A stretch of DNA of 32,000 nt from Promethearchaeia archaeon (GTDB lineage: Archaea; Asgardarchaeota; Lokiarchaeia; Sigyniarchaeales; SOKP01): assembly GCA_046497275.1 (NCBI GenBank), contig JAWOFX010000174.1:1-32000 (forward strand). The letters are read 5' to 3'. Each line of letters starts with the position of its first letter. Positions within the stretch are counted from its first letter, which is position 1. Both the position numbers and the translations under genes were made by a program. Below are positions 15,961-24,163 of this stretch, one piece after another. The notes below the pieces were generated by a model. The model worked only from the letters and a program-made list of their open reading frames with translations, searched no databases and was not told the DNA's origin.

Positions 15961-16569
15961 ATGCCTTTAAATGAAAACTTCCTTTTAGGTATTTGTGGAA
16001 GCCCTCGAAATCAAGCTACCGAATTTGCAGTAAAATATGCACTTGAATATGCTACTGAAAAATTTGATTTCGAAACAGAGTTTTGGACGGTAAGGAATAA
16101 AGAAATTAAATTCTGTATTCATTGTGATTACTGCATTCGAGAAAAGAAGGGATGTATACATAAAGATGATCTGCAAGATCTCTATCCAAAACTAGAACAA
16201 GCAAAATTTCTTCTATTTGGGACCCCAGTATTTCAAGGTAATTTATCAGCTCAGACAAAAGCTGTGATGGACAGATGTCGAGCAATTGTTGCTAAGAATC
16301 CCCAAGTGTTTAAAAATAAGATTGGGATGGCTCTTGCAGTAGGAGGAGACAGGAGTGGTGGACAAGAACTTGCAATAAGAAGCATTTTGGACTTCTATCA
16401 ACAAAATCATGTTATCTCAGTTTCGGGAGGAGCATTTGGAGCGAATCTTGGGGCTGCGCTATGGAGTAATGACAAAGGAAAACTAGGAGTAAAAAATGAC
16501 GATGAGGGTCTAAAAGCAATACGAATGGTTATAAAAAGGATAGGCGAATTTAAAGGACTTAATTTATAA
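15961..16569 (+). CDS. Iron-sulfur flavoprotein (Isf-like, flavodoxin fold)
   Basis: GICGSPR, the compact Cys motif CIHCDYCIREKKGC, GTPVFQG and SGGQE. Confidence 0.88.
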   Translation: MPLNENFLLGICGSPRNQATEFAVKYALEYATEKFDFETEFWTVRNKEIKFCIHCDYCIREKKGCIHKDDLQDLYPKLEQAKFLLFGTPVFQGNLSAQTKAVMDRCRAIVAKNPQVFKNKIGMALAVGGDRSGGQELAIRSILDFYQQNHVISVSGGAFGANLGAALWSNDKGKLGVKNDDEGLKAIRMVIKRIGEFKGLNL

Positions 16570-18749: not shown

Positions 18750-19043
18750 TCAATCTAAAAACATTTCTTCTGCTTTTTTTTTCCTTAAACCTGTCTGGGA
18801 AAATAATTCCTTGAAATAATAATTGCCATCTTGGATTACGACGGGTGTGTTCACAATACATTCATCCTCATCGCAGAAGGTCTTCAAAAAATTTTTGTCT
18901 TGAAGAAGTTGGTTCACAAATTTCTCTTCATTAATGTCTTCTTCTACATACTTCACATCATTTTCTTTAAGCCATTCTTTTAACTCTGCGCATCTATGGC
19001 AATCTTCTTTTGTTATTATTATAGGAAGCTTCATCTCAGTCAT
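18750..19043 (-). CDS. Glutaredoxin/thioredoxin-fold protein
   Basis: N-terminal CHRC active site and a VNTPVV cis-Pro motif. Confidence 0.75.
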   Translation of the reverse strand: MTEMKLPIIITKEDCHRCAELKEWLKENDVKYVEEDINEEKFVNQLLQDKNFLKTFCDEDECIVNTPVVIQDGNYYFKELFSQTGLRKKKAEEMFLD

Positions 19044-19271: not shown

Positions 19272-19742
19272 ATGATTAAATTAAAAAAATCTAAAATAAT
19301 CAAAAGGGTAAAAACGGCTCAGTTTATAGGAAAGCAACTTTCGAGACTTAAATTAGGACAGTCGTATTATAGTATTGCTGTATCTACCGTAAGCGCAATA
19401 TCATTAATTTCTTTGGCATTCCGCATTGAATTTTGGATGATTGCTATTGCTTTTCCGATATTATTATGCTTTGCCTATATTATCGGATATTTTCTTGATA
19501 TTTATAATATTAATACGATGGATACATTGAAATCAAATGAAATAGCTCAACGATTTTTGACGACAAGTGATTTAAAAAACCAAGAATTTCAACTGCTTCA
19601 AACTGAGATATTGCTCGAAGCTGTAAAGGCCATAAATGACGGAAAGCAATTAGAACCAAGAAAATTATTAGAGAAATATGAAGACTATTATGAGAAATGG
19701 AAATCCCCTGAACCTTTGATTGATAAACAAAAATTAAAATGA
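19272..19742 (+). CDS. Hypothetical membrane protein (two predicted TM helices)
   Basis: 156 aa ORF with a GGTGAT ribosome-binding site about 4 nt upstream, two hydrophobic segments and a charged helical C-terminus. No family recognised. Confidence 0.7.
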   Translation: MIKLKKSKIIKRVKTAQFIGKQLSRLKLGQSYYSIAVSTVSAISLISLAFRIEFWMIAIAFPILLCFAYIIGYFLDIYNINTMDTLKSNEIAQRFLTTSDLKNQEFQLLQTEILLEAVKAINDGKQLEPRKLLEKYEDYYEKWKSPEPLIDKQKLK

Positions 19743-19759: not shown

Positions 19760-20797
19760 TTAAATGATTTTTCTTACAATCCATCCTAATGCTTTCATCA
19801 TTTTTTCATGATTATTGGATAAGTTTACAGGAAAATATTCGATGGAGATATTGCATTTTTTAGTTTTTTCGAGATCAAATAATTTATCTAATTCTTCTTC
19901 AGAAACCTCTTCATGGTCGTTTTTTTTGTTCCCAATGATGAGTATTGGGGTTCTATTATCCAACTTAATATTGCATAATCGATTAGTAATAAATTTAAAT
20001 TTCCCCCTTGCATCAAGAAAAGATTGTTTATGTGATGCATTAAAGATTAATATAAAACCTTGAGCCTTATTTATACATCTATTTTTTTTGTTGCATTGTT
20101 CACAGTTAAATTGTTTATCAATGCAATCTTCCATTACGATTTCCATGTTATCAATTACCACATTAAAAATTTTTGTTGGAAGATCGAGGTTATCTTGTTT
20201 TTGAATTTGAATTGATTTAAGATTATTGATAAATGCACTTTTACCAGCATTTTCAGCACCAAAAATAAAAATCTTCTTAGTTTCTTCAATATTTTCCGTT
20301 TTAAAGGAAGCTTCTTTTGTACTTAATCTGCTAAAATAAGAATCATACAGATCAAAAAATTCCTTTTGAAACTCATTGCTTTCTAATGATATCTTATTTT
20401 GTAATGGGTATTTATTATTATTTTTATTTAAAACATCCGAAAAATCTCTTAATTCCTTCAATTTAACAGCATATTCTTCTAAAATAGGAGTTTTTGTCTC
20501 TAAATATTTAAACACATCTGTTATTTCATTTTTAAAATATTCTGCTCTAATCATATAGGTAATCATCAGCAATAATCTTCCCCCTCGCGCATTTTCATTT
20601 TCTATATAGAAAATATGGTTGACAGTTTGATAATTTCTAAAAGCAAAAATAAAAGTACCTTCTTCATCAGTGATATCTAAAATCCTTCCTAAATCGGGAT
20701 GATCAAATTCTTTTGATAATTCCTCATTACAATAAAATATAGTTGGTCCTATGATTGTATCAAAATATGAAATGCAGAGAAATTCCTCTTGTGCCAT
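19760..20797 (-). CDS. Longin/uDENN-like N-terminal domain fused to a degenerate Ras-like P-loop domain
   Basis: N-terminal SYFDTIIGP and NARGG motifs. C-terminal GAENAGKS Walker A, GFILIF strand and IIGNKKND (G4-like). ATG at 20797 preferred over the track start at 20827. Confidence 0.7.
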   Translation of the reverse strand: MAQEEFLCISYFDTIIGPTIFYCNEELSKEFDHPDLGRILDITDEEGTFIFAFRNYQTVNHIFYIENENARGGRLLLMITYMIRAEYFKNEITDVFKYLETKTPILEEYAVKLKELRDFSDVLNKNNNKYPLQNKISLESNEFQKEFFDLYDSYFSRLSTKEASFKTENIEETKKIFIFGAENAGKSAFINNLKSIQIQKQDNLDLPTKIFNVVIDNMEIVMEDCIDKQFNCEQCNKKNRCINKAQGFILIFNASHKQSFLDARGKFKFITNRLCNIKLDNRTPILIIGNKKNDHEEVSEEELDKLFDLEKTKKCNISIEYFPVNLSNNHEKMMKALGWIVRKII

Positions 20798-21001
20798 AAT
20801 TATTATATAATTGGAAGGATAAAGCAAATAATCTTCATTTTATATTTTAAAAGATTTTATTGACTTGGTTATTCATTTAAAATAATAATAAATTGCGGTA
20901 TGAATATTTTATAAAGATTAAAATAATAAAATTGGGAAATCTTTTGATATCAAGATTTCTATATTTCATTAAAAAAATGATTTAATCGGTGAATAAAAAA
21001 T

Positions 21002-21319
21002 ATGGAGAAAATGGAAATTCCCGAGTATATTGAAAAAATAGCTAATAAAGTAGAAGGGAAAAATGATTCGAAAGATATGATGGCTTTTACACTCTCTACA
21101 TGTCAATGGTGTAAAAAATTTAAAAGATATATGAAGGATCGAGATGTTTCCTTTAAATATGTAGATGTGGACCAAATAGATCCAAGTGAAAAAGCACAAA
21201 TATTAACTTTCTTACGTAATAATTTTGATGAACGAGTTTCCTACCCATACTTAATTTGTGATGGAAATGTGGTGGTGGGATATAATCCGAATAAATATGA
21301 TGAATTATTAAAGGACTAA
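21002..21319 (+). CDS. Glutaredoxin (NrdH-like)
   Basis: TLSTCQWCKK CxxC, FKYVDVD and SYPYL (cis-Pro) motifs. GGTGA site upstream. Confidence 0.88.
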   Translation: MEKMEIPEYIEKIANKVEGKNDSKDMMAFTLSTCQWCKKFKRYMKDRDVSFKYVDVDQIDPSEKAQILTFLRNNFDERVSYPYLICDGNVVVGYNPNKYDELLKD

Positions 21320-21331
21320 TGGTGGTTTAAT

Positions 21332-21712
21332 TTGAGTTTTAATTTAGAGAGTAAGGAAGGAATGAGAGAATATTGTGATAAGATTTGTGAAATGAATGAT
21401 TGGATTTTACAAAAAGATAAAGAAACTTTAGATGATTTAATTGATGGACTAGTTGAAAATAAGAAAAAATATGGATACCAATCGTGCCCTTGCCGTTTTG
21501 CATGTGGGAAAAGAGAGTTAGACAGAGATTTAATTTGTCCCTGTGTTTATGCTAAACCAGATATAGAAGAATATGGGACATGTTACTGTAATCTCTATCT
21601 TAGTCCGGATTTTTACGAAACTCATGAAGAGGATTTCCTACAGATTCCAGAGCGTCGACCTGTAGAAAAGGAAAATGCTGTTTTAGAATACATGAATGAA
21701 CAAATCCAATGA
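21332..21712 (+). CDS. Ferredoxin:thioredoxin reductase catalytic subunit
   Basis: YGYQSCPCR, ICPC and CYCNLY: the CPC/CPC/CxC signature of the FTR catalytic chain. Confidence 0.92.
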   Translation: MSFNLESKEGMREYCDKICEMNDWILQKDKETLDDLIDGLVENKKKYGYQSCPCRFACGKRELDRDLICPCVYAKPDIEEYGTCYCNLYLSPDFYETHEEDFLQIPERRPVEKENAVLEYMNEQIQ

Positions 21713-21853
21713 TTTTTAATTTTAAAATTTTTTCTTACTTTTTTTAGATTATAAAAAAGAATCTCTTAATTTTAAAAATAATTAAGCTCTTTGTTCAAAA
21801 ATCAATAATTTATAAAAATAATTTATATATATTATAGATCCTCACTAGTTAAT

Positions 21854-22012
21854 ATGTCAAGAGAAGATTTAACGGACGAAGAAATAGAGGAAATGCTTGA
21901 GAAAGATTTAAAAGCAAATGAAGCGAAACGTGATAACTGTGGAGTTGCAATCCCCCCTAATCGAGAAATTGGAATTCAAAGAGATCAAGTAAAACTCAAG
22001 AAAAAAGATTAA
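21854..22012 (+). CDS. Small hypothetical protein, 52 aa (not in ORF track)
   Basis: MSREDLTDEEIEEMLEKDLKANEAKRDNCGVAIPPNREIGIQRDQVKLKKKD*. Purine-rich coding-like composition. A TTTATATA box at 21822-21829 lies about 25 nt upstream of the ATG, consistent with a leaderless transcript. Confidence 0.65.
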   Translation: MSREDLTDEEIEEMLEKDLKANEAKRDNCGVAIPPNREIGIQRDQVKLKKKD

Positions 22013-22177
22013 GATAAACTTAGATTTTTCTATTTTTTTCCTTTATTCTATTTTTAATTATGCTTATTTAGAATTGATTAAATAAAATAACTCAAAAAAC
22101 AATATTATAAATTCTAAAAGATATTTTTATTAAGGAATCCCATTTCATTATATTACATTAGTTAGAGGTATATCTCC

Positions 22178-23161
22178 ATGGATGAGAGAATTGAAGGAAG
22201 AAAAAATTATCCCACTAAGGAAGTGGATCCAAAAAATTTCATTGATGATGATGAAATCCGTGAAATGGTAAAACAATTAGATTCAATAGAATTTTCTGAA
22301 GATGATTATTATAAAGTTTATAACTGTGTAGATTGTGGAGAGTGTGATACCGAGGAGGATCGTATCCGATTAAAGCAGAAATATGTTGAGCAAGGACATA
22401 TCATTGAAGATTTAAAGAATATGAGACAATGCTTTGAAAAATATAGAACCCCGTATCCTATGAATGAAATGCGAATGAAAATCCCGGAAGGGATCCCTGA
22501 AGAATCTGATACACTTTTTTTCATGGGATGTCTTTCTACGATGAAAATCCCTCGATATACTCAACATGCGCTTGAATATTTATTACATCGAGATATTGAT
22601 TTTACAATATTAGATGAGGAAATCTGTTGCGGATGGCCATGGTATGTTTCTGGTTCAAATGAAGAACTTGAAGTATGTATGAAAGAGAATATTGAAATTT
22701 TTAAAAATTATCAAAAAATAATTTGCCTATGTCCCGCGTGCTATTATTTATTCCAGAACAACTATTGCAAGGAAATGGATAAAGATGTCAAAATTAGCTA
22801 TATCGTTGATTATTTGAGACCTGCTAAAGAAAAAAAATCTGGAAATGTAGCGTTCCAACATCTATGCCAGCTCAAGTTCAGAGGGGAAGACAATATAGAT
22901 AAATTTGTGGAAAATATTTTTAGGAAGAGTGGATATAATATTATCGATATTCCCCATTGGTGCTGTGGACATGGGATTGGCAGAATGCATAGACTGGATG
23001 TAATTGATGCTATAGGAGAAAAGCGTATTAAGGATTTTGACCAGAAAGATATTGATTTCGTTTCCACGTACTGTGTTTCCTGCTGGTGGTGGCTGTATCG
23101 TTTCTCTAAAAAATTCAGAATACATCCTCAAGCTAGGGATATTTTTGAATTACTTATGTAG
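22178..23161 (+). CDS. CCG-domain (Fe-S)-binding protein, HdrD/GlcF-like, paralog 1
   Basis: N-terminal CVDCGEC. Two CCG domains: MGC...ICCGW...CPAC and HLC...WCCG...CVSC. Confidence 0.85.
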   Translation: MDERIEGRKNYPTKEVDPKNFIDDDEIREMVKQLDSIEFSEDDYYKVYNCVDCGECDTEEDRIRLKQKYVEQGHIIEDLKNMRQCFEKYRTPYPMNEMRMKIPEGIPEESDTLFFMGCLSTMKIPRYTQHALEYLLHRDIDFTILDEEICCGWPWYVSGSNEELEVCMKENIEIFKNYQKIICLCPACYYLFQNNYCKEMDKDVKISYIVDYLRPAKEKKSGNVAFQHLCQLKFRGEDNIDKFVENIFRKSGYNIIDIPHWCCGHGIGRMHRLDVIDAIGEKRIKDFDQKDIDFVSTYCVSCWWWLYRFSKKFRIHPQARDIFELLM

Positions 23162-23191
23162 ATTTATATTTATTATTCAAAAGGTTATAAT

Positions 23192-24163
23192 ATGGGTAAT
23201 AATGATAAAAAGGAAAGAAAATACCCTGCTCAAGAGGTAGAACCAGAAAGTTTTATCACTAATGAAGAAGTAGAAGAACTTCTTAGAACAAAACATGAGT
23301 ACCGTTTTCAACAAGAGGATTATAAAAGATTATATAGCTGCATCCATTGCAGAGAATGCGGGACATCTGACGAAAGAATCCTCCTCAAGCAAAAGTTTCT
23401 TAAAGATGGAAACAAAATTGAAGGATTAGAAGAGACCAAAAGAGTATTTCAAAAATATGGAAGTCCCTATAAAGATACAAAAAGACGAATCAAACTGCCA
23501 AAAAATATACCAAAAGAAAGTGACACTTTACTTTATTTTGGGTGTTTTGTTAATGTAAAAGTACCTAAATATGGAGAACATGCGGCACAGTATCTTTTAG
23601 ATAAAGGGGTTGAATTCACAATTTTAGAAAAGGAGATTTGTTGTGGATATCCAGTACTTGTAACAGGTGATACAGAAACTTATGATTATCTCATCGAGAA
23701 AAATAGAAAAATATTTACTGACAAAGGGTTCAAAAAAATAATTACTATATGTCCAAGTTGCTATATGACCTTCAATAAACACTATGCTGACTTAGATATA
23801 GAGATAGAATATTATACGAAATATTTAAAGCCCGCCGAAACGCAAAAATCTGGAAATGTAAGTATTCAACATGCGTGTCCTTTAATATATGATTGTATGC
23901 CTGAAATGAAAGATAGGATTGAAGATCTTTTGAAAGAATCTGGTTATAATGTTATGGATATTCCTTTGTTCTGTTGTGGGGGTGGTGTTGGTCATCAGTT
24001 AAGAACAGATATAGCAGAAAAGATTGCTAAGCTTCGAGTGCAAGACTATAAAGGAAATTTTGTGACTTATTATTGCCCTGATTGTTATTGGTTTATTAAT
24101 GTATTTGGAAAGAGAGCTCGAATCAAACCGAAATTGAAGGATTTAGTGGAATTATTATCTTAA
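23192..24163 (+). CDS. CCG-domain (Fe-S)-binding protein, HdrD/GlcF-like, paralog 2
   Basis: N-terminal CIHCREC. Two CCG domains: FGC...ICCGY...CPSC and HAC...FCCG...CPDC. Colinear with paralog 1. Confidence 0.85.
   Translation: MGNNDKKERKYPAQEVEPESFITNEEVEELLRTKHEYRFQQEDYKRLYSCIHCRECGTSDERILLKQKFLKDGNKIEGLEETKRVFQKYGSPYKDTKRRIKLPKNIPKESDTLLYFGCFVNVKVPKYGEHAAQYLLDKGVEFTILEKEICCGYPVLVTGDTETYDYLIEKNRKIFTDKGFKKIITICPSCYMTFNKHYADLDIEIEYYTKYLKPAETQKSGNVSIQHACPLIYDCMPEMKDRIEDLLKESGYNVMDIPLFCCGGGVGHQLRTDIAEKIAKLRVQDYKGNFVTYYCPDCYWFINVFGKRARIKPKLKDLVELLS

Follow-up and report, generated by a model that had tools for sequence, protein, structure and literature searches.

A predicted GAP-type longin domain fused to a degenerate Arf-like domain in one family of Asgard archaea

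Introduction

In eukaryotes, FLCN, GATOR1 and C9orf72-SMCR8 are longin-based GTPase-activating proteins (GAPs) whose targets at the lysosome are GTPases of the Rag and Arf families. Pseudo-GTPases, for their part, have the GTPase fold and are still conserved as proteins, even though they have lost one or more of the G motifs. To our knowledge, no pseudo-GTPase that carries a GAP-type longin in cis has been described.

[quoted passage not shown] The arginine finger (R164 in FLCN, R147 in SMCR8) is located in the β4-β5 loop of the longin domain (preprint on the C9ORF72-SMCR8-WDR41 structure), and the two longins of C9orf72-SMCR8 cup ARF1 with Arg147 inserted. Yeast Lst7, the FLCN homologue, consists of a longin domain only. 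In Asgard archaea, the GP plus arginine-finger signature was reported in 2025 for 15 longins, in a paper whose Section 2.6 leaves the partner GTPases open and makes no mention of a fusion (PMC12290439). Asgard Arf proteins with an N-terminal longin have already been published, as have 'Rag family GTPases with fused longin', and the cultured Lokiarchaeon MK-D1 has LG, LGR and LGX architectures among its 74 GTPases, with longin-mediated homodimers predicted.

Here, we describe P0001, a two-domain protein of the Lokiarchaeial type encoded in a 32,000-nucleotide stretch of DNA from a Promethearchaeia archaeon (contig JAWOFX010000174.1, positions 1 to 32,000), which is referred to below as the window. 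The N-terminal half of P0001 resembles the longins of FLCN, NPRL2 and SMCR8 in its fold, in having GP where strand 2 begins and in the presence of an arginine in the loop between strands 4 and 5. These eukaryotic proteins act on GTPases of the Rag/Arf family, and the domain fused to the longin in P0001 belongs to that same family. Unlike them, P0001 has no DENN or NPRL2-specific domain and bears a GTPase-like domain on the same chain, and its GAP activity is a prediction. It resembles the longin-only form found in Lst7.

With the other Asgard longin-GTPase fusions (LG, LGR, LGX and the like), P0001 shares the domain order, an Arf/Rag-like G domain and the GP and ARG columns, but in P0001 the G3 motif, the Asp of G4 and the G5 motif are lost and switch II contains cysteines. 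The GP and arginine-finger arrangement is the same as in the GP-motif Asgard longins described in PMC12290439; P0001 and a second protein of the same genome (L069, see below) have a domain of the partner type fused in cis. A preliminary description of this DNA had proposed a regulator-plus-GTPase fusion on one chain and had noted that related domains are known from Asgard archaea. The sequence features were confirmed and the proposed reading is supported by the present analysis; both GP/Arg longins and longin-GTPase fusions are indeed in print, so that the architecture itself is known and the novelty lies in the pseudo-GTPase state, the cysteine-bearing switch II and the one-family distribution. 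The literature searched contains no work that joins the GP/Arg longin with GTPase fusion, describes the degenerate clade or names Asgard pseudo-GTPases, and this degenerate, cysteine-bearing, one-family branch of longin-GTPase fusions appears to be undescribed.

The gene and its family

Read on the minus strand, the frame opens with an ATG at position 20797 and yields a product of 345 residues, in which all motifs quoted in the preliminary description were located (Table 1). A TTG codon lies upstream in frame, at 20827, and is probably not the start, since most of the aligned homologues begin at the position of the ATG or at most two residues away from it. The segment ENARGGRLLLMITY, which holds the ARG triplet, corresponds to residues 68–81. 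In 120 full-length homologues, no variation occurs at Y11, F12, D13, G17, P18, R71, G72, G180 or K186 (100% conservation at each), which puts the motifs far beyond chance.

A word-indexed search returned 282 full-length homologues of about 345 residues. Among the 120 matches listed, all but one are 338–359 residues long, span 99–100% of the query and, wherever a label is given, stem from an Asgard archaeon. With a profile built from 40 homologues, the clade was detected in 58 of the 68 genomes sampled from one GTDB family, mostly in one copy per genome. With the same profile, no member was found in 233 genomes from 29 other families of the phylum, among them a closed, single-contig 4.4-Mb genome of the sister family. 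On the strength of the homologue set and of this distribution, the gene is real, constrained and lineage-restricted.

The constraint is spread unevenly along the chain. The longin core has a mean pairwise identity of 67%, the G domain one of 51%, and values of 39% and 25% were obtained for switch II and the linker, respectively. Thirty-six positions are conserved in at least 98% of the sequences, with 25 of them in the first 147 residues and 11 in the G domain.

Table 1. Positions of the gene, its domains and motifs, and neighbouring features in the window
Feature	Position	Strand	Residues or size	Basis or remark
Whole coding sequence, product P0001	19760–20797 (including stop)	minus	345 aa	
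Longin domain with helical extension	20318–20797	minus	aa 1–160	AF2 models, fold matches, Atlas neighbours
YFDTIIGP (GP motif)	20744–20767	minus	aa 11–18	strand 1/strand 2 junction
A70-R71-G72 (candidate arginine finger)	20582–20590	minus	aa 70–72	strand 4-5 loop
Interdomain linker	20279–20317	minus	aa 161–173	poorly conserved; pLDDT <50 at 162–172
Degenerate Arf-like G domain	19763–20278	minus	aa 174–345	Pfam Arf, VIA-align
P-loop GAENAGKS (G1, Walker A), intact	20237–20260	minus	aa 180–187	conservation in 120 homologues
Rewritten switch II, ending in Arf-like QG	20057–20128	minus	aa 224–247	aligns with DxxGQ...W of canonical relatives
Degenerate G4, NKKND	19916–19930	minus	aa 290–294	N and K retained; Asn at the position of the specificity Asp
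Divergent intergenic region, A+T-rich, common to the target and the glutaredoxin-like gene	20798–21001		204 bp	sequence reading alone
Glutaredoxin-like gene	21002–21319	plus		Pfam; divergent from target
Ferredoxin-thioredoxin reductase catalytic-chain homologue (FeThRed_B)	21332–21712	plus		Pfam; divergent from target
52-aa gene	21854–22012	plus	52 aa	after the FeThRed_B homologue
Thiol-redox block	21002–24163, with 18750–19043 and 15961–16569	plus, with minus and plus, respectively		glutaredoxin-like, FeThRed_B, 52-aa and two CCG-domain genes; second glutaredoxin-like, FMN reductase and HTH_10 genes on the other side

The N-terminal longin domain

The N-terminal part had been labelled longin/uDENN-like in the preliminary description. 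Modelled on its own with AF2 from a 31-sequence alignment, the segment of residues 1–162 reaches a pLDDT of 82.7 and a pTM of 0.83. The model contains five strands (residues 5–13, 17–23, 47–53, 56–66 and 74–84), a short helix (36–40) and a helical region spanning residues 92–158, and its topology, strand-strand-helix-strand-strand-strand-helices, is that of a longin.

An exhaustive VIA-align comparison of the N-domain model gave Z-scores of 12.0 for a Loki longin (8yqg), 11.1 for FLCN (6nzd_H), 10.8 for a longin subunit of GATOR1 (8fw5_C), 10.6 for Lst4 and 9.7 for a SEAC subunit. The longins of TRAPP, Sec22 and SNAREs rank lower (Z of at most 9.6), and the SRX-SR-beta complexes 1nrj and 5ck3 are weaker matches (Z 6.4). 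The best five Foldseek matches of the same model are GATOR1 and FLCN chains (E-values from 4e-5 to 8.5e-4); which of the single GATOR1 chains is NPRL2 and which is NPRL3 was read from protein chain length only. Structural neighbours in the ESM Atlas include eukaryotic NPRL2, SMCR8, C9orf72 and FLCN clusters and also a Heimdallarchaeal cluster that is annotated in part with Pfam Folliculin. The kinship to folliculin, SMCR8 and NPRL2 suggested earlier is thus supported both by the GAP-class longins, which are the best solved matches, and by the Atlas clusters.

The two motifs fall where this kinship places them. G17-P18 forms the start of strand 17–23, which matches the published position of the GP motif. 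R71 is found between strands 56–66 and 74–84 and is invariant in the clade and in distant paralogues; its equivalence to the published arginine finger was judged by its position in the secondary structure. FLCN and NPRL2 presumably resemble the clade consensus around the finger, with ARG followed by a hydrophobic strand.

Sequence comparisons recover little of this relationship. Neither Folliculin (PF11704) nor NPR2 (PF06218) is listed as a Pfam match for P0001, even to an E-value of 10, and two of 25 relatives match one of these families at E-values of 0.05 or lower. Pfam searched with the N-domain alone returned nothing meaningful, and NCBIfam gave short P-loop matches only. A profile of the N-domain alignment run against the sequences of the PDB produced just three chance matches (E-values of at least 0.3), so the link to FLCN and NPRL2 stands on fold and motif position. 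Neither a DENN domain, as in FLCN and SMCR8, nor the NPRL2-specific C-terminal domain is present; the second half of the chain is taken up by an Arf-like G domain instead. With no DENN module, 'longin' is a more fitting label than 'uDENN'. Taken together, the models make the N-terminal domain a predicted longin of the folliculin/NPRL2/SMCR8 GAP class.

The degenerate Arf-like domain

The C-terminal part, previously described as a degenerate small GTPase, is Ras-like and, more exactly, Arf-like. It matches Pfam Arf with 32.8 bits (cut-off 22.3), and the best 50 VIA-align matches listed are all Arf, Arl or Sar proteins, with Z-scores of 14–15.8 (Arf1, Arf6, Arl and Sar1) and an rmsd of about 3 Å over 142–148 residues. 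Further features of the Arf family (Arf, Arl, Sar and Asgard ArfR) are the QG-hydrophobic signature of strand 4 and the tryptophan of the C-terminal helix, both of which are present. In contrast to that family, the domain lacks DxxGQ, NKxD and SA, and the N-terminal amphipathic helix of Arf is absent, its place being taken by the 160-residue longin that precedes the G domain. Gtr1_RagA is not among the Pfam matches listed for P0001, and no roadblock domain follows the G domain, with which the chain terminates.

The P-loop is retained. In the 120 homologues, G180 and K186 are conserved in 100%, G185 in 95% and a Ser or Thr at position 187 in 91%, and an acidic residue (D/E224) occupies the Walker-B position in 95%. 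Members without the P-loop Ser/Thr make up 9% of the clade, and one whole paralogue branch has lost it as well.

The remaining nucleotide-binding motifs have fared differently. The G3 motif DxxGQ is missing in every member of the clade. The G3 position after strand 3 reads D224-C-I-D here, and the residues aligned with the complete motif are DCIDK. The earlier statement that there is no DxxG is therefore correct in the functional sense and incorrect literally, as DEEG (residue 44) and DARG (residue 262) both exist, away from the G3 position. At G4, whose NKKND string had been recognised as G4-like, N290 is conserved in 99% and K291 in 92% of the 120 homologues, while just 17% have an Asp at the canonical position. 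The pattern [NT]KxD occurs nowhere in the 345 residues. The SA motif of G5 is missing across the clade and is replaced by VNL here; the single 'SA' of the protein falls within the P-loop.

Because the Gly and Gln of switch II, the Asp by which NKxD specifies guanine, and the SA of G5 have all been lost, the C-terminal domain is, as judged from its sequence, a pseudo-GTPase derived from the Arf family. It shares with other pseudo-GTPases the loss of G motifs within a conserved GTPase fold, and the word 'degenerate' in the preliminary description was apt.

Switch II has been rewritten. Its length is about that of switch II in Arf1, according to our own comparison, and four cysteines, C225, C232, C235 and C241 (C-x6-C-x2-C-x5-C), stand where DxxGQ was. 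C241 is conserved in 100% of the 120 homologues, C225 in 80%, C232 in 59% and C235 in 41%, and Q246 in 98%. All four cysteines are found together in 41%.

The AF2 model of the full-length protein (pTM 0.50) contains a disordered linker and displays no confident packing between the two domains.

Canonical relatives and paralogues

Distant longin-GTPase relatives identified in an exhaustive search can be aligned from end to end and share the FD..GP and ARG columns. GLDxAGKT, DxxGQ...W, NKxD and SA are all retained in these proteins, which match Pfam Arf with E-values down to 3e-48. The degeneration of the G domain in the clade is therefore a derived state.

The genome that encodes P0001 also contains the paralogue L069 (470 residues, 681–2090 on the minus strand), which has the same GP and ARG columns and scores 23.1 bits against Pfam Folliculin (cut-off 23.3) and 1e-24 against Gtr1_RagA. 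Its Rag-like G domain is canonical (GLDKVGKT, DLGGQ, NKYD), and the chain has space for another C-terminal domain. Within one genome, then, the GP/Arg longin shares a chain with an Arf-like domain in P0001 and with a Rag-like domain in L069. As gene-fusion evidence, this suggests that the link of longin GAPs to both the Arf and the Rag families is older than the eukaryotes.

Relatives carry extra modules, which are PAS, GAF, histidine kinase or TIR domains. In other genomes, the same type of longin is joined to a TIR domain (P0138), and the combinations longin-Arf-PAS (P0171) and longin-Arf-PAS-GAF-HATPase (P0191) also occur. Two more GP/ARG longins are encoded in the genome of P0001, one of 293 residues (L060, 1501–2382, plus strand) and one of 441 residues (L059, 595–1920, minus strand); the C-terminal halves of both have no match to a Pfam family. 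About 49 matches to small-GTPase-like domains were counted in this 3.85-Mb genome.

A paralogue branch of about 337 residues (L046–L051, genera g3, g6 and g7) has a shortened switch II without cysteines and P-loops of the type GPKGSGKD. In this branch, too, GP and the arginine are invariant, and its genes are sited outside the thiol-redox block described below.

Mode of action

With moderate confidence, we favour the reading that P0001 is a trans-acting GAP-type longin that carries a tethered pseudo-GTPase. The longin would be the working end of the protein. It would probably form a dimer platform, with Arg71 serving as arginine finger for a GTPase, most likely an Arf- or Rag-like protein of the cell other than P0001 itself. 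The G-like domain on the tether would no longer cycle as a classical GTP/GDP switch and may instead serve as a docking or regulatory domain, either holding a nucleotide or working independently of one.

A finger that acts in trans is favoured mainly because of the stronger constraint on the longin and the invariance of GP and Arg71 in the face of P-loop changes. Neither varies even in sequences whose P-loop Ser/Thr has been substituted (GSKKSGKK, GPKGSGKD), which argues that Arg71 is independent of catalysis by the domain in cis. C9orf72-SMCR8, with Arg147 inserted into ARF1, provides a precedent. The invariant Arg71 could instead be structural. Among the neighbouring genes analysed with Pfam, no partner GTPase is encoded adjacent to the target. 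A homodimer prediction with two copies and GTP gave 0.44, 0.00 and 0.00 in its runs and speaks neither for nor against dimerisation.

Possible, though in our estimate unlikely, is that the protein is its own substrate. Arg71 would then complete the active site of the protein's G domain, either on the same chain or between the two chains of a longin homodimer, and replace the lost catalytic Gln, which would turn the protein into a slow, self-timed NTPase. The presence of a GAP-type longin and its usual type of substrate on one chain throughout the superfamily, fully canonical members included, is consistent with this, as are the longin homodimers predicted for the longin-GTPase proteins of MK-D1. 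The invariance of G180 and K186, the acidic residue 224 and the frequent Ser/Thr187 point the same way, and the conservation of Lys186 and of this Ser/Thr would permit nucleotide binding in cis and GAP action on the own chain or within a dimer. Yet the Gly and Gln of switch II are gone in every clade member, the full-length model contains no confident intramolecular docking, and GP and the arginine stay invariant in the very sequences, a whole paralogue branch among them, that have lost the P-loop Ser/Thr. As a small, single-chain prokaryotic system, the degenerate clade is a test case both for an arginine finger in cis versus in trans and for the role of a pseudo-GTPase.

The thiol-redox neighbourhood

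Thiol-redox genes flank the target on both sides (Table 1). The divergent side starts with the glutaredoxin-like gene and the FeThRed_B homologue, after which come the 52-aa gene and the two CCG-domain genes. On the downstream side of the target lie another glutaredoxin-like gene, the gene for an FMN reductase and one for a regulator of the HTH_10 type. The same arrangement is found around the gene in 29 of 57 related loci, which belong to five genera.

This neighbourhood and the cysteines of switch II bring up a further reading, in which C225, C232, C235 and C241 coordinate a metal or make up a redox-active disulfide. The glutaredoxin-like, FTR-like and CCG (heterodisulfide-reductase-like) proteins encoded nearby would determine the state of the cysteines, and the switch would have taken over the role of the sensor of the γ-phosphate. 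We consider this improbable. The conservation of C241 and C225 and the thiol-redox genes that flank the target in the window and in about half of the related loci argue for it. So does the distribution of the cysteine patterns. All 26 loci with a CCCC or CxxC pattern (both include C225) and one xCCC locus are in the block, the exception being a CCCC locus whose contig is 4.4 kb long, and all 18 loci with the C232 plus C241 pattern are outside. However, this correlation between cysteine pattern and context is in step with phylogeny and goes back to very few events, which makes the redox link a lead and not a finding. Moreover, the full set of four cysteines is confined to the minority of homologues given above, and one paralogue branch has none of them.

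Nor is the gene an obligatory part of the block, which occurs in at least six genera, both where it encloses the longin-GTPase gene and where it does not. Of the three genomes of genus g2 examined, two (L070, L072) have an intact block that does not include the gene; in g2, the gene sits elsewhere and has a different cysteine pattern. The linkage is therefore dispensable and may be inherited gene order. We considered the neighbourhood as proof of a redox function and rejected it as such, given that the block occurs without the gene and the correlation tracks phylogeny.

A combined version, in which a GTPase-fold sensor with switch II turned into a cysteine or metal switch, read by the glutaredoxin, FTR-like and CCG proteins, gates an arginine-finger longin that acts on other Arf/Rag-like GTPases, seems to us rather improbable still. 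If true, it would amount to redox-to-small-GTPase signalling in the closest archaeal relatives of eukaryotes, in outline like the nutrient sensing of FLCN and GATOR1.

Non-catalytic readings

The longin could also be of the GEF or effector type, comparable to TRAPP, Mon1-Ccz1 or the SRX domain of SR-alpha that holds the Arf-like protein SR-beta, in which case the protein would be a non-catalytic platform and the arginine would be structural. The majority of longin and roadblock domains serve as platforms for GEFs, and SRX-SR-beta does appear among the weaker fold matches of the N-domain. Nevertheless, we think this very doubtful: the GAP-class longins outrank TRAPP, SNARE, Mon1-Ccz1 and SRX as matches, and the GP motif, which is invariant here together with the arginine, is restricted to longins of GAP complexes (PMC12290439). 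That the gene is a decaying, non-functional remnant, as the loss of three of the five G motifs might suggest, is effectively refuted by its conservation, that is, by the intact frame, the mostly single-copy presence in 58 of 68 genomes, and a G domain that retains 51% identity and 11 positions conserved to at least 98%.

Other genes at the locus

An ORF of 156 residues (19272–19742, plus strand) is convergent with the target gene. It has no Pfam match and contains two stretches that are hydrophobic by eye. In eight related loci, its product is 71–74% identical, compared to about 43% for the target.

In some relatives, a gene pair is inserted in the redox block (L003, 2018–4313; L004, 2401–4630). 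One gene of the pair encodes a protein of 367–371 residues with Pfam Fuz_longin_1, a longin of the Mon1/Fuz/HPS1 type, and the other a protein of 349–357 residues that belongs to no known family. The two products might form a longin pair.
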